Below, in pieces: positions 21,463 through 32,844 of a DNA stretch of 64,000 nt. The stretch is from an uncultured Acidobacteriota bacterium (lineage in GTDB: Bacteria > Acidobacteriota > Terriglobia > Terriglobales > Acidobacteriaceae): assembly GCA_963729415.1 (NCBI GenBank), contig CAVSOD010000013.1, positions 14,784 through 78,783 of the forward strand, given 5' to 3'. Made by a program: the position numbers and the translations under genes. The notes beneath the pieces are model-generated. The model saw only the letters and a program-made list of their open reading frames with translations. It ran no database searches and had not been told where the DNA came from. Positions within the stretch are counted from its first letter, which is position 1; every line of letters begins with the position of its first letter.

Positions 21463-22350
21463 TTATCTCGTCGCGTGTGCGAGATCGACCGCTAGGGGTT
21501 GCCACACTGTCACCATTTGCCGTGATTCGCCCAGTCTGTCAATCCCAAGTTCCACTATGTCGCCCACCTTCAGGTATTGCGGAGGCCGCATGCCTAATCC
21601 CACTCCGGCCGGTGTTCCTGTGCTGATGACGTCGCCTGGCAGTAGCGTCATGAATTGACTGACGTAGCTGACGAGGGTCGGTACGTCAAAGATCATCTCG
21701 CGGGTGGAACTGCGTTGGCGAAATGCGCCATTTACTTTCAGCCACATGTTCAGGTCGCCGGGATTGGGGATCTCGTCGCGCGTCGCCAGGAACGGCCCCA
21801 ACGGCGCAAAGGTGTCGGCGCTCTTTCCCTTGACCCATTGTCCGCCCCGCTCCAGTTGAAAGACCCGTTCGGAATAATCGTTGTGCAGAACATAACCAGC
21901 CACATATTCGAGCGCGTCTTCACGCTCGATATAGCTTGCCCTCTTGCCGATCACCACCGCCAACTCAACTTCCCAATCCACTTTGGATCCATTCTTCGGA
22001 ATGACAAGGTCATCGTTCGGGCCGACGAGAGAGCTGGTAGCTTTGAAAAATATGACGGGCTCTTTCGGGATCTCCATTTTGCTTTCTTTCGCGTGATCGT
22101 GGAAGTTCAAACCGATGCAAACGATCTTGCTCGGTCGAGCAATCGGCGAGCCCAGCCGCACAGACTGTGCAATCTGCGGCGCCGAAGCTGCATTGTCCTT
22201 CCACCAGCGCCTCAGTTGGGACAGCCCGTCATCGGCCAGGAATGTCTCGTCATAGTCGCCTGTGAAGCCGGAGACATCCCGACGCGTGGAGTCTTCCAGC
22301 ATGACGCCGGGCTTCTCTCCACCTGGAACACCAAACCGGATCAGCTTCAT
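21463..22350 (-). CDS. fumarylacetoacetate-hydrolase-family protein, candidate 2,4-diketo-3-deoxy-L-fuconate/rhamnonate hydrolase
   Basis: Start moved to MKLIRFG... (ATG 22350). FAH-fold motifs (...VCIGLNFHDHAKE..., ...GDVISTGTPAGVG...). Confidence 0.75.
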   Translation of the reverse strand: MKLIRFGVPGGEKPGVMLEDSTRRDVSGFTGDYDETFLADDGLSQLRRWWKDNAASAPQIAQSVRLGSPIARPSKIVCIGLNFHDHAKESKMEIPKEPVIFFKATSSLVGPNDDLVIPKNGSKVDWEVELAVVIGKRASYIEREDALEYVAGYVLHNDYSERVFQLERGGQWVKGKSADTFAPLGPFLATRDEIPNPGDLNMWLKVNGAFRQRSSTREMIFDVPTLVSYVSQFMTLLPGDVISTGTPAGVGLGMRPPQYLKVGDIVELGIDRLGESRQMVTVWQPLAVDLAHATR

Positions 22351-22593: not shown

Positions 22594-23676
22594 ATGAATG
22601 ACATCTTTCCGCACCTCGATTACAAACCGAAGCTACCGCAGCGATTGGACCACGGAATCGGCATTATCGGCGCCGGAGGAATCGTCAACTATGCGCATCT
22701 ACCTGCGTACAAGAAGGCGGGATTTAAAGTTGTGTGCATCACCGACCGAGATCGCGAAAAGGCGGAGCGCACCGCCAAAGAGCACGGAATCGGAAGAGTG
22801 TGCGCCAGTGTCGATGAGTTGCTGAGTCTATCCGAGGTCGAGATCGTCGACATAGCCGTCTACCCCTCGGAGCAGGTCGCTATTGTCGAGAAGGCCGCTG
22901 CCGCAGGCAAACATCTGTTGTGCCAGAAACCTTTTGCCGACGAGTATTCAAAAGCGGTTCGCAGCGTTGAACTCGCGGAACGCGCCAAGGTAAAGATTGC
23001 GGTCAACCAACAGATGCGCTGGGATGCTGGCATCCGTTGCGCGCGCCTTTTGATGGATGATGGTTGGCTGGGCACGCCCACCTACGCTGCGATTCAGGTT
23101 CACTGTAAGACTGACTGGAGTCTCTGGCCCTGGATCTATCAGGGCAAGCATGTCGAGATCATGTTTCACAGCATTCATTACATCGATTCCCTTCGCTATC
23201 TGCTGGGTGATCCGGCTTACGTTTTCACCAGCGGAAGCCGCGCGCCGGGTGAAACCACACAAGCTGAAACCAAGACCCTAACCACGTGGGAGTACAAATC
23301 CAGCCTGCAGGTACTGATCGACGTTTGCCATACCACATGGCACGACGATCCCTATGCCATCTTTCGCTTTGAAGGCACTGAAGGCGTGATCAAGGGAACT
23401 ATCGGTCTGATGTACAACTATCCGACTGGCCGGCCCGACACCCTGGAGTTCATGTCGAAGCGTAATCCTGGCTACTGGTTCTCGGCTCGCCTCGACAGCA
23501 TGTGGATTCCGGATGCCTTCGTCGGTCCGATGGCGTCACTCATGCGGTCCATCGAGAGCGGATCGGAGCCCGAGACCAGTGGACGCGACAACCTTCGAAC
23601 GTTGCAAGTGGTATTCGCCGAATACCGCTCCATGGCAGAAAAGCGAGCCGTCCGCCCTGAAGAAATCAATGCATGA
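22594..23676 (+). CDS. Gfo/Idh/MocA-family NAD(P)-dependent oxidoreductase
   Basis: Start at ATG 22594 (MNDIFPHLDYKPK...). GIIGAGGIVNYAHLPAY Rossmann N-terminus. Confidence 0.75.
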   Translation: MNDIFPHLDYKPKLPQRLDHGIGIIGAGGIVNYAHLPAYKKAGFKVVCITDRDREKAERTAKEHGIGRVCASVDELLSLSEVEIVDIAVYPSEQVAIVEKAAAAGKHLLCQKPFADEYSKAVRSVELAERAKVKIAVNQQMRWDAGIRCARLLMDDGWLGTPTYAAIQVHCKTDWSLWPWIYQGKHVEIMFHSIHYIDSLRYLLGDPAYVFTSGSRAPGETTQAETKTLTTWEYKSSLQVLIDVCHTTWHDDPYAIFRFEGTEGVIKGTIGLMYNYPTGRPDTLEFMSKRNPGYWFSARLDSMWIPDAFVGPMASLMRSIESGSEPETSGRDNLRTLQVVFAEYRSMAEKRAVRPEEINA

Positions 23677-23682
23677 ACAACG

Positions 23683-24933
23683 TTATTTGGCTGGAAGCAC
23701 GCCCTTCAAGTCCGAAGAGGACCCGGGCACCTGCGAGGTTACGTACCTGCCATTCTCTATTTGAGCAGGATCTACGAAATGTGGCTGCAGATGCGGGATG
23801 CATTCGAGAAATACCGCTTCATGCCCTAGCGCAATGTGATTAAACAGCACCATGTGTTGGTGAATCTGTCCCATATCGCCCACGTGTGGAATGACTCGCA
23901 GACCGAACTTTCGCGCCAGTAAACTGACTGTAATGAACTCAGAGATGCCGGCCACCCGCGTGCAGTCGACTTGCACAATCTGCACGGCCGCCGCCTGCAT
24001 GAAATTCTTGAACATAACGCGGTTCGGAACGTGCTCGCCCAGAGCCAACGGTATCGGCCGAACCGCATGGGAAAGTGTGCTGTGCGCGCGAATATCGTCA
24101 GGGTGAGTCGGTTCCTCTACAAAAAACGGAGCCATCTTCCGAAGCTTTTCGCACATTTCGAGTGCTTGTGGAAGGGTCCACTGCTGGTTCGCGTCAAGCA
24201 TGATCAGCGCATCTGCTCCGGCCAGGTCGCGCAACATGAAGGCGCGCCGCACGTCACGCTCCCCGTCTCGGGATCCGACCTTCAGCTTGAAAGCGTGAAA
24301 GCCCTTTGCCATCGCCTGTTGCGTCAGATCCTTCACTTGCTCGTCTTCATACTGGAACCAGCCTACGGATGTGTCATAACCGGGATAGCCGCTGCGCAAG
24401 ATGCTCTCCCGCTCTCGGCGGGAGCTCGCCTGGTTACGCAACATCGTTTCAGCCTCCTCCCGCGTGAGCACGTCTTCGAGATAGCTCAAATCGAGCAGGT
24501 CGACAATCTTTTTTGCATCGAGATCCAGGAGAAGCCGCCATAAGGGCACGCCCCGACTCTTCGCCCACAAATCGAAACACGCGTTGGTGAGCGAGGCGAG
24601 GGCCAGGTGAACGACGCCCTTATGAGGACCCAGCCAGCGAAGCTGAGGGTGTTGCGCAAGGTTTTGTGCAATCGCTCCGAAATCCGACATCAATTCCTCG
24701 ATTTCCCTGCCAATCAGTTCCTTGCCAAGCCATTCAATCGCTTCACAAACCAACTGATTGCCCAGTCCAAGCGTAAGCACGATGCCGCTGCCGAAGACCT
24801 TTTCTTGGGAGCCGAGCAGAGTGGTGGCAAATGCGTACTCGGCACCCGAGTGCACCGCGTCGCTGCCCGCCCCTTGCTCCAGCGGAAAACGCACATCCCG
24901 CGTTTCCAGCGAAGTAATCCGGAATTGTGTCAT
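23683..24933 (-). CDS. fucD: L-fuconate dehydratase (enolase superfamily)
   Basis: 416 aa, collinear with Xanthomonas FucD as I recall it (ITSLETRDVRFP..., LRWLGPHKGVVHLA..., EEPTHPDD..., GEHVPNRVMFKNF...). Confidence 0.85.
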   Translation of the reverse strand: MTQFRITSLETRDVRFPLEQGAGSDAVHSGAEYAFATTLLGSQEKVFGSGIVLTLGLGNQLVCEAIEWLGKELIGREIEELMSDFGAIAQNLAQHPQLRWLGPHKGVVHLALASLTNACFDLWAKSRGVPLWRLLLDLDAKKIVDLLDLSYLEDVLTREEAETMLRNQASSRRERESILRSGYPGYDTSVGWFQYEDEQVKDLTQQAMAKGFHAFKLKVGSRDGERDVRRAFMLRDLAGADALIMLDANQQWTLPQALEMCEKLRKMAPFFVEEPTHPDDIRAHSTLSHAVRPIPLALGEHVPNRVMFKNFMQAAAVQIVQVDCTRVAGISEFITVSLLARKFGLRVIPHVGDMGQIHQHMVLFNHIALGHEAVFLECIPHLQPHFVDPAQIENGRYVTSQVPGSSSDLKGVLPAK

Positions 24934-25099: not shown

Positions 25100-25423
25100 A
25101 TGAAGCGTTACGGTTCCGTGATCAAAGTCAGACCCGAATCTCTTGAAGCCTATAAGAAATATCACGCTGCCGTATGGCCGGAGGTCCTCGCCATGATCCG
25201 GAAATGCAAAATACAAAACTATTCCATCTATCTGAAAGACGACCTGCTCTTCGGCTACTTCGAATATCACGGGACGGACTATCCGGCCGACATGGCGAAG
25301 ATGGCTGCCGATCCGAAGACCCAGGAATGGTGGACGATCATGATGCCAATGCAGCAGCCCTTGGAGACCTGCGCCGAAGGCGAGTGGTGGGCCAATATGG
25401 AAGAAGTGTTTCATTGCGATTGA
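25100..25423 (+). CDS. rhaM: L-rhamnose mutarotase-family protein (RhaM/YiiL)
   Basis: 107 aa. ...YKKYHAAVWPEVLAMIRKCKIQNYSIYL...WW...EEVFH matches the YiiL pattern. Confidence 0.8.
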   Translation: MKRYGSVIKVRPESLEAYKKYHAAVWPEVLAMIRKCKIQNYSIYLKDDLLFGYFEYHGTDYPADMAKMAADPKTQEWWTIMMPMQQPLETCAEGEWWANMEEVFHCD

Positions 25424-25475
25424 TTTGACAGACCTCGAGTTCGACACTACAGTTCGGCTCCGGCCTAACCGCCTT

Positions 25476-26318
25476 ATGCAAATCGTGGACACGCACCAGC
25501 ACCTCTGGGACATAGAGCACTTTCGCTACTCCTGGCTCCACTCCCTTCCGCAGTTGAACCGCTCTTTCCGAATGGCGGACTATCTCGCAGCCACCGAAGG
25601 ATTGAACGTGGTGAAGTCGGTGCACATGGAAGCGGACGTCGATGAGCAGTACATGCTCGACGAGACCCGCCATTTGCTTGCGCTTGCTGAACAAACCGAC
25701 AATCCTCTCGAAGGCATCGTGGCATGCGGCCGGCCCGAGAACGAAGATTTCAAATCCTATCTGGACAAGATCGCGGCGTATCCCAAGGTAAAGGGGATTC
25801 GTCGCGTGCTCCATACCCAGCCGGACGGGGTCGGCCAGGGAGCGACCTTCCTCAAGAACGTGGCTGCGCTCTCGGATTACGGCCTCTCATTCGACATCTG
25901 CGTTCTGGCTCGGCAGCTTCCGATTGCGATCAAACTAGTCTCTAAATCCCCGGATGTGGTCTTCATCCTCGACCACTGTGGCGTGCCCCAAGTGAAGGAG
26001 CAGCATCTCGACCCTTGGCGGTCGCACATCACGGAGATCGCCAAGTTTCCAAATGTCTCCTGCAAAATCTCCGGCTTGGTGGCATACGCAGATTCAGAGC
26101 GATGGACTGCTGAAGACCTCAGACCTTTTGTCGAGCACGTGATCGTCACCTTCGGCTGGGATCGCGTCCTTTTTGGGAGCGACTGGCCGGTGTGCACGCT
26201 CTCCGCCAGCTATCGACAGTGGGTGGAAGCATTGCAGGCCCTCACGCACGAAGCAGGTGAGATCAACCAGAAGAAGCTGTTTCACGACAATGCCGTCCGC
26301 GTATACCGGCTGAGCTAA
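25476..26318 (+). CDS. amidohydrolase-2-family lactonase (cog3618 type, candidate L-fucono-/L-rhamnono-lactonase)
   Basis: MQIVDTHQHLWD N-terminus typical of this family. The ORF track offers an alternative TTG start at 25425. Confidence 0.7.
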   Translation: MQIVDTHQHLWDIEHFRYSWLHSLPQLNRSFRMADYLAATEGLNVVKSVHMEADVDEQYMLDETRHLLALAEQTDNPLEGIVACGRPENEDFKSYLDKIAAYPKVKGIRRVLHTQPDGVGQGATFLKNVAALSDYGLSFDICVLARQLPIAIKLVSKSPDVVFILDHCGVPQVKEQHLDPWRSHITEIAKFPNVSCKISGLVAYADSERWTAEDLRPFVEHVIVTFGWDRVLFGSDWPVCTLSASYRQWVEALQALTHEAGEINQKKLFHDNAVRVYRLS

Positions 26319-27521
26319 AGCCCAAACTCCCTCTGAATGGTCGCGGTGTGTTCTCCTACTCTGGGGGCGAGCCCCGTGCTGGTCAGAAGAGCTCCGTCCA
26401 ACCGAATCGGTAGGCGAGTGGTCAGAATCTCGATTCCTCGTCCATTGGTAAGGGTTTGCACCATGGCGAGTTCCTTGAAAGCTTTGCTTGCGCAGAGCTT
26501 GGGCCAATCCAAGACCTCGGCGCACCAGATGTCAGCGGCGTTCAGTATCTCGAGCCAGTGCTCGGTGGTGTGCTCCTTGAGGCGACTGCGCAATAATCTT
26601 CTTGATCTCGTCGCGACGTTGGAAACCCTCGGCCGAGTTCGAGATTTCCTGGAGCGCAGGTAAATCGAGCAATTTGCCGAGCGTCGGAAGATGGGTCATG
26701 GCCAGGGCCAGGTAGCCGTTCGCCGTGTCGTAGACCCCGTAAGGCGCCGCCAGGTAGGCGTGGGCGTTGCGAAATGTACTCCTCCGCGGTGGCCGTCGTC
26801 CGTCATTCAAGTGCGTCGTCAGCACTTCAAATTGGAAGTCCAGTAAGGCCTCAATCAGGCTGGTTTCGACGAGTCCACCGTGGCCCATCACGCCACGTCG
26901 CACGAGACAGGCCAAAATTCCCTCGCACAGGTTGTGGCCCGCCAGCATATCGGCGATAGCCAGAGCCATCGGCGTAGGCGGATCGCCGTCGTTGCCGCTC
27001 AGCCACATGATTCCGGATCGCGCCTGTGCCAGCAGGTCCTGACCTGGTCGATCGCGCCATGCCTCCGCATTCCCATACCCGGACACGATTCCGTACACCA
27101 ACCGGCTGTTTATCTGCGACACGCTGTCGTAACCAAGTCCCAGCCTCTCCATCACGCCCGGACGGAAGTTCTGCACCATCACATCGGTGCGCGCTATTAA
27201 TTGGCGGAGTTTATCGAGAGCGACGGGATCCTTCAGGTCTGCGGCATAGCTCTCCTTGTTGCGATTGATCGCGTGAAAGAGCGTGTTCTCGCCGTGCACA
27301 TCGGTATCGCTGAGGTAGAGCGTGCGGCCCAGGTCTCCAGTCCCAGGCCGTTCGATCTTGATCACGCGGGCGCCAAGATCCGCCAAGCGAAGGGTGGCCA
27401 ATGAACCGGAAAGAAACTGGCTGAAATCCAGCACCAGCACACCCTGGAGGGGTCTTTCTGTCTTCGGATCGCGGCGAACTGTCGAAATAGTCACGGAGAG
27501 GCTCCTGGCTGTGGTGGGCAC
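26315..27521 (-). pseudogene. family-III CoA-transferase (CaiB/BaiF type), frameshifted near 26583-26588
   Basis: ORF 26532..27521 (...LQGVLVLDFSQFLSGSLATLRLADLGARVIKIERPGTGD...RRDEIKKIIAQ) continues in ORF 26315..26593 (RLKEHTTEHWLEILNAADIWCAEV...). One extra nt (or a 2-nt loss) separates the frames. Confidence 0.75.
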
Positions 27522-27640: not shown

Positions 27641-28465
27641 ATGACCCCCCGGCGCACGATTCGTCGGCAGCTTGCTTCGCGGAGAATCCGCTACGCTGCT
27701 CCAGCTCTCGAAAAGGGCCTGGACATCCTGGAGCTACTAGCTTCCGTCTCGGACTCTCTGACGCACAGCGAGATTGCCAGCCGACTAGGGCGCACCATTA
27801 CCGAAGTCTTCCGCATGTTGGTGTGTCTCGAAGAACGGGGCTATCTTTCGCGGACGGGTACAGACGAGCGCTACCAGCTGACGCTGAAGCTGTTCGAGAT
27901 TGTCCATCAGCATCGCCCTCTGCAACGCCTGATAACTCAGGCGCGCCCGCTGGTACAACGGGTGGCGAGCGAAACCGGACAGTCCTGCCATTTGGCTATG
28001 CTCAACAACGCGGAGGTAGTTCTGGTAGCGCAGTCTGACGCGCCCGGTAACATGGGTTTCTCAGTCCGTCTTGGTGCAAATATTGATCTTCTGAACACCG
28101 CTTCCGGACACGTCATCCTGGCGTTTCAGAGCGAGGAGGTCCGCGCCCGCGCGCTGGGAGCCTGGCGTCTGCGTTCCAGAAAACCAGTCCCGCTCGGCCT
28201 TTCCCGTCACCTGAACCAAATTCGTCGGCGAGGCTATGAGGAACTGGCCAGCTACCAAGTCCACGGAGTCGTGAACATCAGCTATCCAGTATTGAATCAA
28301 CACGGAGAGGCGATTGCGGCGATGACTGTGCCATTTCTTGCTCGCATCGGAGACAGCCTGGGGCCGCCCCAGGTCAAGGAGGCGTTGAGTGCGGCATCCC
28401 GTGCGCTTTCCTTAGCCATCGGCGGCAAGAGACTGGAACTTTCATCCGGAATGCTGCTGCCATGA
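27641..28465 (+). CDS. IclR-family transcriptional regulator, first gene of the operon
   Basis: wHTH ([13 protein letters not shown]...[20 protein letters not shown]) plus an IclR effector domain. Its stop overlaps the next start (ATGA). Confidence 0.85.
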
Positions 28466-28911
28466 CGCGAACAGAGTATTTCGAGGATTATTCAATCGGC
28501 GCCCAACGCGTCACCTCGGGGCGGACAATTACCGAGACCGACGTCGTCATTCATGCGGGCCACACGGGAGACTACTTCCCGCACCACGTTGACGCGGAAT
28601 TTGCCCGGGCAACACCGTTCGGCCAGCGAATCGCCCACGGCACTATGACCTTCGCCATCGGCATCGGCCTCACAGCCAGTCAGATTAATCCTGTCGCATT
28701 TACCTACGGGTATGACAAGGTGCGCTTCCCAAAGCCCGTCTTCATCGGAGACACGCTACGGACTCGCGTCACTGTGAAGGAGAAGCAGGACGACCCCAAG
28801 CGGAAAGGGTTGGGTCGCATCGTGGAAGCTTGCGAAGTGCTCAATCAGCGCGATGAGATAGTCCTGTATTGCGAGCACATTCTGCTAGCTGAGAAGCGCC
28901 CGGCCGCTTGA
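28462..28911 (+). CDS. MaoC-like hotdog-fold dehydratase/hydratase (149 aa)
   Basis: ...[26 protein letters not shown]...FGQRIAHG... is a typical MaoC_dehydratase signature. Confidence 0.75.
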
Positions 28912-28949
28912 TCGGGCTACCGGTGCTTTCAGAAGGGAGGAGGTTTAGT

Positions 28950-30122
28950 GTGGGAATCACTCTGAGAGGGCTCACCTGGGATCATCCCCGCGGTTACGCC
29001 CCTTTGCTTGGAGGTGTCCCCGAATATAAGACACAACATCCTGAAATCGATGTCCAGTGGGACCGGCGAACTTTGCGTGAATTTGGCGAAGCTCCGATCG
29101 AGCAATATCTGGATCGCTATGATCTGCTCATCGTGGACCACCCGTTCGTCGGATTCGCCGCAGCTCACGCGGCACTTGTGGACCTCGCGCCTTCGATCAG
29201 CGAAGTGGAGAAACATCGTTTCGCGATAGACTCCGTAGGCCCTTCCTGGAAATCCTACTGGTATGACGGCGGCCTCTGGGCCTTCCCCATCGATGCCGCA
29301 ACGCAAGTCGCATCCTATCGGCCTGATCTTTTATCAGTGTTGTCTTCCACTGTTCCGAACACCTTCGACGATGTCTTGGGAGTGGGAGCAAAAGCTCGCA
29401 AAATTGGGAAACACATCGTTGTGCCCGCGTGTCCGACAGATGCGATCAGTCTTTTCTTTACCTTGAGTGCAAATCTCGGAGATCCTGTTCCCGGAGAGCG
29501 CGAACTCTTCGTGGAAGACTCGGTCGCAGCAGACGTGCTTGGTAGGCTTCACGCGCTCATAGCCGTTGCGCATCCCAAGTCGGTCGACTGGAACCCGATC
29601 CAAGTTTACGATTTCATGTCCAGCAGTTCCGACGCGGTCTACTGTCCGTACGGCTTCGGTTATTCCAACTACTCGCGAGTGAGTAGCTCGGTGCGATTGA
29701 AGTTCACGAATGCTCCCACTGCAGGCCAGCATGGATGCGCCGGGACAACGCTGGGAGGGACGGGGGTTGCAATTAGTAAGCACAGCGCAAATCAACCAGA
29801 AGCCATCTCCTACGCCAAATGGCTGGTCAGCCCCGAACACCAGCGAGGGACCTATTTTCGCGAAGGAGGCCAACCTGCCAGCCTGGCGGCCTGGAGGAAC
29901 CCATCAGTGAATGCGGCATCAGACGACTTCTTTGCCGGTACGCTGCAGACTCTACAGACCGCCTACGTGCGACCCCGTTTCGATGGATTCGTTCGTTTCT
30001 TTGAGGCTGCAGGAATCGAAATCAATCGTTGCTTACGCGGAGAAATCAAGGATGCAGCGCTGATCCGATGGCTTAATGATCGCTACGCCACTCAGCGAAT
30101 CGCAGCACGCCGAATCGCGTAG
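28950..30122 (+). CDS. solute-binding-protein-fold protein (family-1 SBP-like) without signal peptide
   Basis: GGAGG at 28939-28943 lies 6 nt before GTG 28950. The protein starts [20 protein letters not shown].... It has SBP-like length and composition, no hydrophobic leader, and no adjacent permease or ATPase. Confidence 0.55.
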
Positions 30123-30139: not shown

Positions 30140-30661
30140 GTGAGAAACCCGAATCCCGATCCCGCGAAGCATAAAGAGATTTCTATCTGGAATGCCGAAG
30201 ATTGGTTGTACGAGGACTTCGAGGTGGGCAAGCGTGCGCGTTCGATTCGGCGCACGATTTCCGAGGGCGAGAGCATGTTGTTCAATGCCATGGTTCTCGA
30301 CATGCACCCCTACGTGGCCGACGATGTTTTCGCCAAAGAAGAGGGAGTTTTTGGAAAGCGGCTGGTGGCGGGCGCCATGGTATTTAGTCTGGGATTAGGA
30401 CTCATGGCGCACAACAACATTCATACTTTTAGCTACGGATACGACAAGTTGCGCTTCATCAAACCGGTTTTCGTTGGCGATACCATTTACACCATTCGCA
30501 CGCAAATGGAGAAACTACCCAAGTACGCTGAAATGGGGATGGTAAGGGTCTCTTACGAAGTCTTCAAGATGCCAGGAGAGCTGGTGCTGTATTGCGAACA
30601 CTTGCAAACCGTGAAGTATCGCGACCCCACGAAGTTCAAGGACCAACTGCAGCAGAAGTAA
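30140..30661 (+). CDS. MaoC-like hotdog-fold dehydratase/hydratase (173 aa)
   Basis: ...[26 protein letters not shown]...[10 protein letters not shown]... and the shared tail ...LVLYCEHL, as in the first MaoC gene. GTG start. Confidence 0.7.
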
Positions 30662-30672
30662 AGCATCTCCTT

Positions 30673-31329
30673 ATGACGCCACCGGGATCGCTCGCCGAAC
30701 GATTGCAAAGCTGCTATAGCGGGGCCGTGTTTGACGTGCTGAGGACGAAAGGCTTTCTCAGGCAGACCCTCCCGCAATACATCCGCCCTTTGAATCTGCA
30801 GCACAAGCTTGCCGGCCCGGTATTTACCATCGAGGGGAGGCGGGACGATTCGTTGGACGCTCATGAGAGCCTTCTGCGGTGGTGTGAACTCTTGTCCAAG
30901 GCGCCCGCGAACACAGTGTTGATCTGTCAACCCAATGACCACACTCTGGCGTACATGGGAGAACTCTCCGCCGAGACCCTGCACCACAAGAAGGTGCTAG
31001 GCTACATCGTGGATGGCGGATGCCGCGATTCGGCTTTTATCGAGAGCATGGGTTTTCCGGTGTTCTGCAAGTATTTCACTCCGGTGGACGTAGTGAGCAA
31101 GTGGGCAACCACGTCTCTGGGCGAGCCTATTCAGATCGGCGAAGTCACGGTATCCACGGGTGACTATGTACTTGCCGATCGCGACGGAATCGTGATCGTC
31201 CCCGGTGCAATCGCTTCAGAGGTGCTGCAAGAGACCGAAGAAGTCCTGCGCAAAGAAAATCTCGTGCGAAAGGCGATTCTGCAGGGTGTTGACCCGGTTC
31301 AAGCTTACCTGCGGTACGGAAAGTTTTGA
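30673..31329 (+). CDS. RraA-like protein (class II pyruvate aldolase / oxaloacetate decarboxylase family)
   Basis: Start at ATG 30673 (MTPPGSLAERL...). ...AYMGELSAETLHHKKVLGYIVDGGCRDSAFIESMGFPVF... matches the RraA/HMG-CHA aldolase core. Confidence 0.7.
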   Translation: MTPPGSLAERLQSCYSGAVFDVLRTKGFLRQTLPQYIRPLNLQHKLAGPVFTIEGRRDDSLDAHESLLRWCELLSKAPANTVLICQPNDHTLAYMGELSAETLHHKKVLGYIVDGGCRDSAFIESMGFPVFCKYFTPVDVVSKWATTSLGEPIQIGEVTVSTGDYVLADRDGIVIVPGAIASEVLQETEEVLRKENLVRKAILQGVDPVQAYLRYGKF

Positions 31330-31646
31330 TGCAAACGGAAGGCAAATCAAGAAAGCTGCTGCGCATTCATCGCGACGACAACGTGTTGATCGTCGTCGTA
31401 CCTATAAGACCCGGGGATCGTGACATCCTTGATGGGCGCGAAGTCGTGTTCACTCAGAACATTGCAATCGGCCACAAGGTTGCTGTCCGAGATATCGAAA
31501 CGGGAGAAAAGATATTTAAGTGTGGTGTTCCGATTGGTTCGGCCAAAGAGAGCATTCCTGCAGGAGGACACATTCACCTGCATAACCTGAAGAGTGACTA
31601 CATCGCAACTTACACTTTGGACAAAGATCATGTCTTCGTCAAGTAA
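31329..31646 (+). CDS. UxaA/GarD/SuyA-type small subunit (SAF beta-clip domain only)
   Basis: ...DNVLIVVVPIRPGD...IAIGHKVAVRDIETGEKIFKCGVPIGSAKESIPAGGHIHLHNL is the N-terminal SAF module of altronate/galactarate dehydratases, encoded here as a separate gene. Confidence 0.7.
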   Translation: MQTEGKSRKLLRIHRDDNVLIVVVPIRPGDRDILDGREVVFTQNIAIGHKVAVRDIETGEKIFKCGVPIGSAKESIPAGGHIHLHNLKSDYIATYTLDKDHVFVK

Positions 31647-32844
31647 CACCCTTGCACTGCAAGGCTTTCTGCGCTCGGACGGAAGAAAAGGAATCCGTAA
31701 CTGCATCGTTGTCGCCTATCTTGTGGAATGCGCTCACCACGTGGCTCGCGAGATCGTGGACGCTTTTCGGGATCAACCGGTTCATTTGATCGGCTTTGGA
31801 GGATGCTACCCCAACGCCTACGCTGACCGGATGATGAATACGCTCTGTACCCATCCGAACGTCGGGGGGGCACTGCTGCTTTCCCTGGGATGCGAAAGCT
31901 TTAATCGGCATCGCCTCGCTGAAAATATTGCTAAGACCGGCCGGCCCGTGGAGACAGTCGTCATCCAGCAGACGGGGGGAACAAGGAAATCCATCGAGTC
32001 GGGCAAAACGTGGGTCTCGAAGGCGCTCCAGCAGATTGCTGAGGTGCCGCGGGCTCCATTGCACGTGAACGAACTCGTGGTAGGAACCGTTTGCGGCGGA
32101 TCGGACGCCACCAGCGGAATCTCGGCTAATCCCGCGGTGGGACGTGCTTTCGACATGCTAGTTAAGCAAGGCGCGGCCACGATCTTCGAGGAAACCGGTG
32201 AAATGATCGGACTCGAAGACGTCATGTCGGCCCGCGCGGTCACGTCGGAGCTTGGCCACGAACTGAAAACATCCGTCGAAAAAGCAGCACATTACTACAA
32301 GCAAATGGGGCATGCCAGTTTCGCGCCGGGCAATGCCGAGGGTGGACTAACCACCATCGAGGAAAAGTCGATCGGAGCATATTGCAAGAGTGGCGATTCC
32401 CCCATCTCCGGACTCATCAAGCCCGGCGACGTTCCTCATAGGGGCGGTCTGTACCTATTGGATGTCGTCCCCGATGGCGAGCCGCGATTTGGATTCCCCA
32501 ATATTAACGACAATGCCGAAATTGCCGAACTGATCGCCTGCGGTTCCCACGTGATCTTGTTCACGACCGGACGCGGTTCGGTGGTGGGCTCTGCGATTTC
32601 GCCCGTCATAAAAATCTGCGCGAACCCGGAGACCTACGAGCGCATGAGCGATGATATGGACATCAATGCGGGGAAAATCCTGCGGTTGGAAGCGAGCGTA
32701 GACGAAGTCGGCGATGAAATTTACCGAAAAGTATTGGACGTGGCATCGGGGACGCAGAGTTGTTCCGAGAGCCTCGGACATCAGGAGTTCGTGCTCACCT
32801 ACAAGTCGTTTGAGCCCATCGGACCAGCTTGCCTGCCTGGGTGA
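31630..32844 (+). CDS. UxaA/GarD/SuyB-type large subunit (GD_AH_C dehydratase domain)
   Basis: ATG 31630 (MSSSSNTLALQGFLRSDGRKGIRNCIVV...) overlaps the small-subunit gene by 17 nt. ...GCESFN..., ...VCGGSDATSG..., ...LFTTGRGS... are typical of the family. Confidence 0.75.
   Translation: MSSSSNTLALQGFLRSDGRKGIRNCIVVAYLVECAHHVAREIVDAFRDQPVHLIGFGGCYPNAYADRMMNTLCTHPNVGGALLLSLGCESFNRHRLAENIAKTGRPVETVVIQQTGGTRKSIESGKTWVSKALQQIAEVPRAPLHVNELVVGTVCGGSDATSGISANPAVGRAFDMLVKQGAATIFEETGEMIGLEDVMSARAVTSELGHELKTSVEKAAHYYKQMGHASFAPGNAEGGLTTIEEKSIGAYCKSGDSPISGLIKPGDVPHRGGLYLLDVVPDGEPRFGFPNINDNAEIAELIACGSHVILFTTGRGSVVGSAISPVIKICANPETYERMSDDMDINAGKILRLEASVDEVGDEIYRKVLDVASGTQSCSESLGHQEFVLTYKSFEPIGPACLPG

Follow-up and report, generated by a model that had tools for sequence, protein, structure and literature searches.

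The window analyzed here is a 64,000-nucleotide stretch of DNA from an uncultured bacterium of the Acidobacteriaceae (assembly GCA_963729415.1, contig CAVSOD010000013.1, positions 14,784 to 78,783 of the forward strand). An open reading frame (ORF) at 28950–30122 on its + strand encodes a leaderless 390-residue protein with the fold of the family-1 substrate-binding proteins (SBPs), which we call SBPL. The gene sits between two genes for hot-dog proteins, MaoC1 and MaoC2, which match the MaoC domain at 101.6 and 42.7 bits, respectively. A sequence-only reading of this DNA had recognized that arrangement and had proposed that SBPL stays in the cytoplasm as a ligand-binding or catalytic subunit working with its hot-dog neighbours. 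Judged from sequence comparisons, SBPL is a new cytoplasmic variant of the binding-protein fold within a predicted, undescribed coenzyme A (CoA)-dependent deoxy-sugar module.

Direct reading of the sequence confirmed a Shine-Dalgarno element, GGAGG at 28939..28943 (+), 6 nt before the GTG start codon at 28950. Just one alternative start would lengthen the protein, a TTG at 28908 that overlaps the stop codon of the preceding MaoC gene. It contributes 14 residues, as had been noted, and these residues, judged from their sequence, contain no hydrophobic core. Upstream, the reading frame closes 24 codons before the conserved Gly, just 5' of the TTG extension (row L084). Inspection of both start options disclosed neither a signal peptide nor a lipobox on SBPL.

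A leaderless protein with a sugar-binding-protein fold

SBPL matches the Pfam family SBP_bac_1 with 44.6 bits (cut-off 26), and its homologues also carry precomputed PF01547/PF13416 assignments. Its closest sequence relatives in the PDB are sugar SBPs, with 6jai at the top (E 2e-7). An AlphaFold2 model of SBPL, built from an input alignment of 41 sequences, reached a pLDDT of 95.4 and a pTM of 0.92. When this model was searched with Foldseek, it aligned with MalE3, SmoF, the Thermus alpha-glycoside-binding protein, GacH and TMBP at TM-scores of 0.78–0.85 (best 0.82–0.85), with a Foldseek probability of 1.00 for MalE3, SmoF and others. MalE-like transport SBPs and maltose-binding protein (MBP) fusion constructs fill the first 50 places, with no enzyme among them. 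The model and the Foldseek matches place SBPL in the class II binding-protein fold, which consists of two alpha/beta lobes and a hinge, so that structure prediction bears out the earlier assignment of an SBP fold.

The CUT1 carbohydrate SBPs, including T. maritima MalE3 (6dtq), SmoF (7yzs), the Thermus protein (6j9w) and T. litoralis TMBP (1eu8), resemble SBPL in their two-lobed class II fold and in the cleft positions of conserved residues, but are only 15–20% identical to it. Unlike these proteins, SBPL has no signal peptide, lipobox or cognate permease/ATPase and is encoded among cytoplasmic enzymes. Matches to the permease domain BPD_transp_1 number 15 in the genome and zero on C13, the contig that carries SBPL, in agreement with the statement that no transporter lies beside the gene. 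Three further SBP_bac_1 matches in the genome all lie on other contigs, two of them (on C7 and C11) a few kb from permease matches, and SBPL itself is present in a single copy. Neither of the two traits that mark a working transport SBP, export and a matching transporter, is found for SBPL.

The lack of a leader extends to the whole family, consistent with the cytoplasmic location proposed from the sequence. A word-indexed search returned more than 2000 homologues, the best 120 of which are 78–95% identical to SBPL, almost all 388–392 residues long, and come from Terriglobales and 'Sulfotelmatobacter'-type Acidobacteriota. A few longer gene calls among the homologues carry N-terminal extensions that are unrelated, non-hydrophobic and not conserved. 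When 50%-identity representatives were searched exhaustively, 473 clusters passed E<1e-30; almost every one measures 375–400 residues and aligns with SBPL from residue 2–5 of both query and target. A related-loci search with a 9-sequence alignment yielded 80 genome loci from Acidobacteriota, Pseudomonadota, Bacteroidota, Chloroflexota, Thermomicrobiota, Bacillota, Actinomycetota, Planctomycetota, Deinococcota and Verrucomicrobiota. Many of the SBPL genes in these loci have an in-frame stop 7–15 codons 5' of the conserved GITW.H.RG block, and because such stops sit just upstream of the conserved start, a signal peptide is excluded in many homologues. Among the matches listed, none joins SBPL to another domain. 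The ratio of nonsynonymous to synonymous substitution rates (dN/dS) is 0.08–0.13 against seven acidobacterial orthologues, and selection on SBPL is strongly purifying. Together, these comparisons show that the gene is no chance ORF but encodes an intact, strongly constrained MalE/CUT1-type binding-protein fold that is predicted to stay in the cytoplasm.

Across 41 SBPL sequences with a mean identity of ~40%, 34 columns are invariant, including H12, R14, D63-H64-P65, D115, R124, Y238, Y241, G269/G272, Q298, G307-Q308-P309, W315 and R341-P342-R343. The family-specific invariant motifs (including ...AW and RPR) are absent from transport SBPs and from a second leaderless family, SBPL2, that is described below. 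To map the cleft, we used a sequence alignment to the Thermus alpha-glycoside-binding protein (6j9w/6jai), in which the residues mutated by the depositors are named in the entry titles. Of these, R356 aligns with the invariant R341 of SBPL, W287 with its LGGxG loop, and D118 with A117, two residues past the invariant D115. Since the mutated ligand-site residues align on or beside invariant positions, the invariant set of SBPL appears to line the canonical ligand cleft. That it is kept unchanged over ten phyla suggests a single, fixed ligand, and possibly catalysis as well. SBPL and its homologues offer an example from nature of a MalE-type binding fold taken over for work in the cytoplasm.

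The distribution of SBPL is patchy. Carriers make up 4 of 301 sampled genomes of the window's phylum, and in a tree of SBPL from 83 loci the Acidobacteriota appear in at least four places, with the window's clade sister to Azospirillum and Chelatococcus. This pattern suggests horizontal transfer of the cassette that contains SBPL.

Genes that accompany SBPL

Neighbours were counted at 83 loci, which represent at least 10 phyla, by clustering all ORFs within 7 kb of an SBPL-type gene. A family-III CoA-transferase accompanies SBPL most regularly; it was found at 72 loci and is 50–65% identical to the window's copy across phyla. It is the next gene downstream of SBPL at 45 loci, separated by a gap of at most 20 nt at 36 and joined by a 4-nt overlap at 22. 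MaoC genes occur at 62 loci and a crotonase gene at seven, never together with MaoC, such that one hydratase type or the other is present at 69. The partnership with the flanking hot-dog proteins that had been proposed is partly supported, with its centre shifted from the hot-dog pair to the CoA-transferase. Likewise, MaoC neighbours recur widely, but the second MaoC gene proved optional and at the seven crotonase loci another enzyme takes their place. These seven loci (L016, L019, L026, L043, L045, L056 and L067) mostly carry an SMP-30 lactonase and/or a short-chain dehydrogenase/reductase (SDR), and the crotonase version of the module may be adapted to a sugar acid with another stereochemistry.

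Less constant neighbours are a Gfo/Idh/MocA oxidoreductase (54/83), an Amidohydro_2 or SMP-30 lactonase (41/83), an IclR regulator (36/83), an enolase-superfamily dehydratase (19/83), rhaM (19/83), permeases of ATP-binding cassette (ABC) transporters (18/83) and RraA (16/83). Homologues with signal peptides beside ABC permeases would have spoken for an ordinary transport protein; mostly no permease is adjacent, and many of the loci that do contain permeases encode, in addition, an exported SBP of their own that bears a signal peptide. For the dehydrogenase (Gfo or SDR), the lactonase (Amidohydro_2 or SMP-30) and the hydratase (MaoC or crotonase), non-homologous types substitute for one another from locus to locus, against a constant background of CoA-transferase and SBPL. 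Among carriers whose SBPL locus is without CoA-transferase and MaoC genes, three of five have these genes elsewhere in the genome. One Terriglobia genome has two SBPL paralogues, 65% identical and 300 kb apart. The first (G306:C25:515144-519382) lies between MaoC1 and MaoC2 beside a CoA-transferase gene, and the second (L010) lies with RhaT, a lactonase, two SDRs and rhaM and has no CoA-transferase of its own.

In the window, SBPL belongs to an eight-gene cassette in which the CoA-transferase gene is divergent from the operon IclR-MaoC1-SBPL-MaoC2-RraA-like-SAF-UxaA-large. The cassette recurs in relatives with different outer flanks, those of L001 being flagellar genes. The IclR-family regulator (27641..28465, +; HTH_IclR and IclR_C) is the operon's first gene, as in relatives, and overlaps MaoC1 at an ATGA. 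MaoC1 (28462..28911, +; 149 residues; PF01575, 101.6 bits) is an (R)-hydratase-type hot-dog protein that aligns over its whole length with PDB entry 4ffu (235.8 bits, E 1e-69), with the GD..P.H positions kept. The entry 4ffu is named only 'oxidase', such that a structure of a close MaoC1 relative exists without an assigned function. MaoC2 (30140..30661, +; 173 residues; PF01575, 42.7 bits) is a hot-dog paralogue with Val for the motif His. In the 4ffu alignment, at what we take to be the hydratase-2 motif positions, MaoC1 retains the Asp and the His, whereas MaoC2 retains the D and has Y-V instead of H-H. MaoC2 is the most conserved protein of the module (66–77% identity between Acidobacteriota, Chloroflexota, Bacillota and Pseudomonadota) and is absent from most Bacteroidota loci. 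By sequence, MaoC1 and MaoC2 fit a catalytic/non-catalytic hot-dog pair, of which HadAB and ChsH1/H2 are examples.

Downstream of MaoC2 follow an RraA/HMG-aldolase-like protein of 218 residues (30673..31329, +; PF03737, 101 bits), found only in a subset of related loci, and the two subunits of a split UxaA/GarD-type sugar-acid dehydratase. The small, SAF-domain subunit (31329..31646, +) has weak SAF and galactarate-dehydratase N-terminal matches and is kept as a 105-residue gene in relatives, and the large subunit of 404 residues (31630..32844, +) matches GD_AH_C with 278.9 bits and GD_AH_second with 104 bits. A split UxaA-type fuconate dehydratase is known from C. jejuni. The RraA and split-UxaA genes are confined to Acidobacteriota, Rhodobacteraceae and a few other loci, and therefore form a separable unit.

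The CoA-transferase of the window (26318..27521, -; PF02515, 250 bits) is of the CaiB/YfdE type and is frameshifted. By tblastn, residues 7–299 are read in frame -3 and residues 302–388 in frame -1, consistent with a 1-nt frameshift caused by one surplus base near 26579–26585, outside any homopolymer. Both halves are 83–91% identical to intact relatives, and the gene is intact in relatives of the window. The frameshift reflects either an assembly error or a module that is being inactivated here although SBPL is intact.

Setting in deoxy-sugar catabolism

The genes on the far side of the CoA-transferase belong to deoxy-sugar breakdown. They comprise a rhaM-family deoxy-sugar mutarotase (25100..25423, +; PF05336, 120 bits), an Amidohydro_2 sugar lactonase resembling L-fucono-lactonase (25425..26318, +; PF04909, 186.5 bits; NCBIfam L-fucono-1,5-lactonase, 147.7 bits, below the cut-off), and an orthologue of L-fuconate dehydratase (FucD) of the enolase superfamily (23683..24933, -; 350 bits over the full length to Xanthomonas FucD, 1yey/2hxt). 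Further out lie a Gfo/Idh/MocA oxidoreductase (22594..23676, +), assigned by Pfam and neighbour clustering, and a FAH-family hydrolase (21463..22350, -) that is closest to 2,4-didehydro-3-deoxy-L-rhamnonate hydrolase (NCBIfam NF053535, 361.5 bits over the full length against a cut-off of 500). With the oxidative L-fucose and L-rhamnose pathways, which proceed through FucD or LRA3 and then LRA5/LRA6 or an aldolase, the window shares the mutarotase, lactonase, FucD, FAH hydrolase, the split UxaA with the aldolase-like protein, and IclR.

The same setting recurs in other phyla. In Pedobacter, SBPL lies in a polysaccharide-utilization-type locus with GH78 and GH106 alpha-L-rhamnosidases, GH2 and a FucP-like transporter of the major facilitator superfamily (MFS). 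Chitinophagaceae have a compact MaoC-SBPL-CoA-transferase-CoA-transferase-lactonase-RhaT-Gfo operon, and a Martelella plasmid has the order IclR-lactonase-mutarotase...Gfo-CoA-transferase-SBPL-MaoC; neither operon contains a known aldonate dehydratase. These arrangements show that SBPL genes are embedded in catabolic clusters for the oxidation of 6-deoxy-L-hexoses (L-fucose/L-rhamnose). Carriers of the module span at least 10 phyla and include polysaccharide degraders that live in soil, in the sea or in association with plants.

No FucD/RhamD-like enolase was found at E<=1e-10 in Pedobacter hiemivivus or Paenibacillus rigui, which keep FAH hydrolases of 48–64% identity. A clean argument from a missing dehydratase was nevertheless discarded, and the gap is suggestive only, because UxaA-family and IlvD genes are present in all five genomes examined. 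Pedobacter hiemivivus also has a separate, apparently complete oxidative L-fucose operon (L085; G001:C56:156000-175000) away from its rhamnosidase-flanked SBPL locus, with the gene order MFS, rhaM, a fused 552-residue UxaA-type dehydratase, SDR, a secreted 442-residue protein, FAH hydrolase, lactonase and SDR.

A second leaderless SBP_bac_1 family, SBPL2, starts with M..FRIAVRKFGPFESA and occurs at 20 loci (including L038:13457-14692, L068:12775-14082 and L035:12347-13570). It shares a BLAST cluster with exported SBPs, bearing signal or twin-arginine translocation (Tat) peptides, that lie beside ABC permeases in Rhodobacteraceae. The leaderless SBPL2 loci always contain a Gfo/Idh/MocA gene, and a lactonase gene is present at none of the 20, compared with 41 of the 63 other loci (Fisher p ~1e-7), an exclusion that holds in several lineages of the tree. 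SBPL2 may stand in for the lactonase.

The oxidative fucose and rhamnose routes are regarded as fully described and free of CoA, and to our knowledge neither CoA nor a hot-dog hydratase nor a cytoplasmic protein of SBP fold takes part in any described route. A module conserved to this extent within their gene clusters implies either a missing reaction or an alternative dehydration chemistry.

Possible roles of SBPL

The combination of a CoA-transferase with a hydratase recalls the carnitine system of E. coli, where the CoA-transferase CaiB and the enoyl-CoA hydratase CaiD dehydrate carnitine with cycling of CoA, and where CaiE, an accessory protein of unknown role, is reported to stimulate CaiB/CaiD (PMC2131755). 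Both systems pair a family-III CoA-transferase with a (de)hydratase whose substrate is a 3-hydroxy acid in the form of its CoA ester, presumably so in the present case, and both have an accessory protein, CaiE there and putatively SBPL here. They differ in that the hydratase here is mostly a MaoC hot-dog protein (a crotonase at seven loci), no CaiC-like ligase is present, the presumed substrate is a polyhydroxy sugar acid, and the fold of SBPL is unrelated to that of CaiE. By this analogy, the reading that we favour, with about an even chance of being right, is that the CoA-transferase, the hydratase and SBPL form a CaiB/CaiD-type CoA-cycling hydro-lyase module, in which SBPL would serve as a cytoplasmic binder or partner, or as a catalyst.

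In such a module, the sugar dehydrogenase and lactonase would produce a 6-deoxy-L-aldonate, most likely L-rhamnonate and possibly also L-fuconate, which the CoA-transferase would turn into its CoA thioester. The (R)-specific MaoC would then take off the 3-hydroxyl by dehydration across C2-C3, giving the 2-keto-3-deoxy acyl-CoA. By our own stereochemical reasoning, L-rhamnonate and L-fuconate are both 3R, the configuration that MaoC enzymes use. Handing the CoA to the next aldonate would free the 2-keto-3-deoxy acid, on which an aldolase or a dehydrogenase and hydrolase would then act as in the usual pathways. The cleft of SBPL, lined with invariant Arg, His, Asp, Tyr and Gln, may bind the sugar acid, its lactone or its CoA ester, which would be prone to lactonization, and SBPL would either present or protect the substrate for the CoA-transferase or catalyze a step of its own. 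The binder or partner version is favoured by the translational coupling of SBPL to the CoA-transferase; the enzyme version is favoured by the invariant polar cleft, the occasional separation from the CoA-transferase and the precedent of SBPs that became enzymes.

Several observations weigh against a CoA-cycling hydro-lyase. We know of no aldonyl-CoA or 2-oxoacyl-CoA ester as a metabolite, and no CaiC-like priming acyl-CoA ligase was found among the conserved cluster neighbours. The Gfo/Idh/MocA enzyme is not assignable as a sugar 1-dehydrogenase, and the frameshifted CoA-transferase is the sole copy in the window's genome, where no second one was found. SBPL genes sometimes lie apart from those for the CoA-transferase and MaoC, and one 7.3-Mb genome has SBPL with neither of these at the thresholds used. 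In Niabella and Pedobacter, UxaA-family genes elsewhere could serve instead. The window and the Rhodobacteraceae loci carry a bona fide FucD and a UxaA-type dehydratase, and therefore the module does not simply fill an empty dehydratase slot there. A literature search returned no paper describing the module and no biochemical or genetic datum for any member; papers on Brucella BaaR, GapMind and Variovorax fucose catabolism were unrelated to it.

A more specific form of the CoA-cycling reading is tentative, possible rather than probable: SBPL would be an obligatory cytoplasmic part, either holding the substrate or catalytic, of a CoA-dependent sugar-acid dehydratase in which it acts together with the CoA-transferase and the hot-dog hydratase to convert L-rhamnonate or L-fuconate to the 2-keto-3-deoxy acid via aldonyl-CoA, with SBPL2 replacing the lactonase in some lineages. 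If true, oxidative sugar catabolism would with this SBPL-dependent dehydratase have its first step through a CoA thioester, and the MalE fold would have gained a new function.

The alternative that survives best, although we regard it as rather unlikely, makes SBPL a free-standing enzyme derived from a binding protein (a lyase, a hydrolase or thioesterase, or a lactone-opening or isomerizing enzyme) that acts on a 6-deoxy-sugar derivative and is only a pathway neighbour of the CoA-transferase. The evolution of SBPs into enzymes is established, as exemplified by cyclohexadienyl dehydratase (PheC), which arose from an SBP (10.1101/157495, PMC7683729). PheC, unlike SBPL, goes back to the family-3 amino-acid SBPs and has kept its export. 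Further enzymes that evolved from binding-protein folds are thiaminase I, MqnA/MqnD and THI5. The invariant polar pattern (H12, R14, D63-H64, D115, Y238, Y241, Q298, Q308, R341 and R343) is enzyme-like, SBPL stands without CoA-transferase or MaoC genes nearby in L010 and in L018, L021 and L044 (with an enolase), and the mutual exclusion of SBPL2 and lactonase suggests that SBP folds were recruited as catalysts in this pathway. However, no homology of SBPL to PheC, thiaminase I, MqnA/D or THI5, and hence no known SBP-derived enzyme, turned up among the PDB sequence matches or in the Foldseek top 50, and so close a translational coupling to the CoA-transferase would rather be expected of partners produced in a fixed ratio.

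It is distinctly unlikely, in our estimate, that the module acts downstream of the aldonate, on a product common to both routes, such as an acid derived from L-lactate or L-lactaldehyde, or on another acid from the same polysaccharides. Such a role would account for the presence of the module in both fucose-type and rhamnose-type contexts and for its coexistence with FucD and UxaA-type dehydratases in the window, and the closest characterized CoA-transferases (YfdE, succinate-hydroxymethylglutarate and mesaconate) take dicarboxylates. Yet the site of action of MaoC and crotonase hydratases is C3, where lactoyl-CoA carries no hydroxyl, 6-deoxy sugars cannot yield aldaric dicarboxylates, and compact operons join the module to a transporter, mutarotase, dehydrogenase and lactonase without any dehydratase.

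Very little probability attaches to the idea that SBPL is a cytoplasmic sensor of the inducing sugar or sugar acid that signals to IclR or another regulator. The operon in the window does begin with an IclR gene, 36 of the 83 loci have one, and SBP folds act as sensor domains elsewhere. However, at over half of the loci IclR is missing from the neighbourhood, IclR proteins possess an effector domain of their own, IclR_C, and SBPL is coupled to the CoA-transferase gene rather than to a regulator.

Finally, that SBPL is a transport SBP after all, through a mis-called start, non-classical export or a transporter encoded elsewhere, is scarcely credible: the database names of its homologues and its position directly after two permease genes in a few Chloroflexota and Actinomycetota loci (L019, L026 and L041) are outweighed by in-frame stops that rule out a leader in many homologues, a contig without a permease gene, the frequent occurrence of the family in Bacteroidota loci that import via RhaT or a FucP-like MFS transporter, ABC systems that, where present, have their own signal-peptide SBP, and an invariance of cleft residues over ten phyla that is unlike transport SBPs.

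The names in question, 'extracellular/ABC transporter substrate-binding protein' in the RefSeq and JGI records examined, would on this evidence be wrong on the location of SBPL and would inflate transporter counts in metabolic reconstructions. Plasmid-borne homologues bear similar labels: Sinorhizobium/Ensifer megaplasmids account for ~100 of the 146 matching plasmid records, annotated as 'ABC transporter substrate-binding protein', with NZ_CP020331.1 (421992–423101) as an example of a plasmid-borne homologue. The Sinorhizobium megaplasmid records inspected were either unannotated or had a broken match: in S. meliloti RCAM1115, the SBPL match falls into three pieces with no coding sequence in the PLSDB table, and is possibly a pseudogene.

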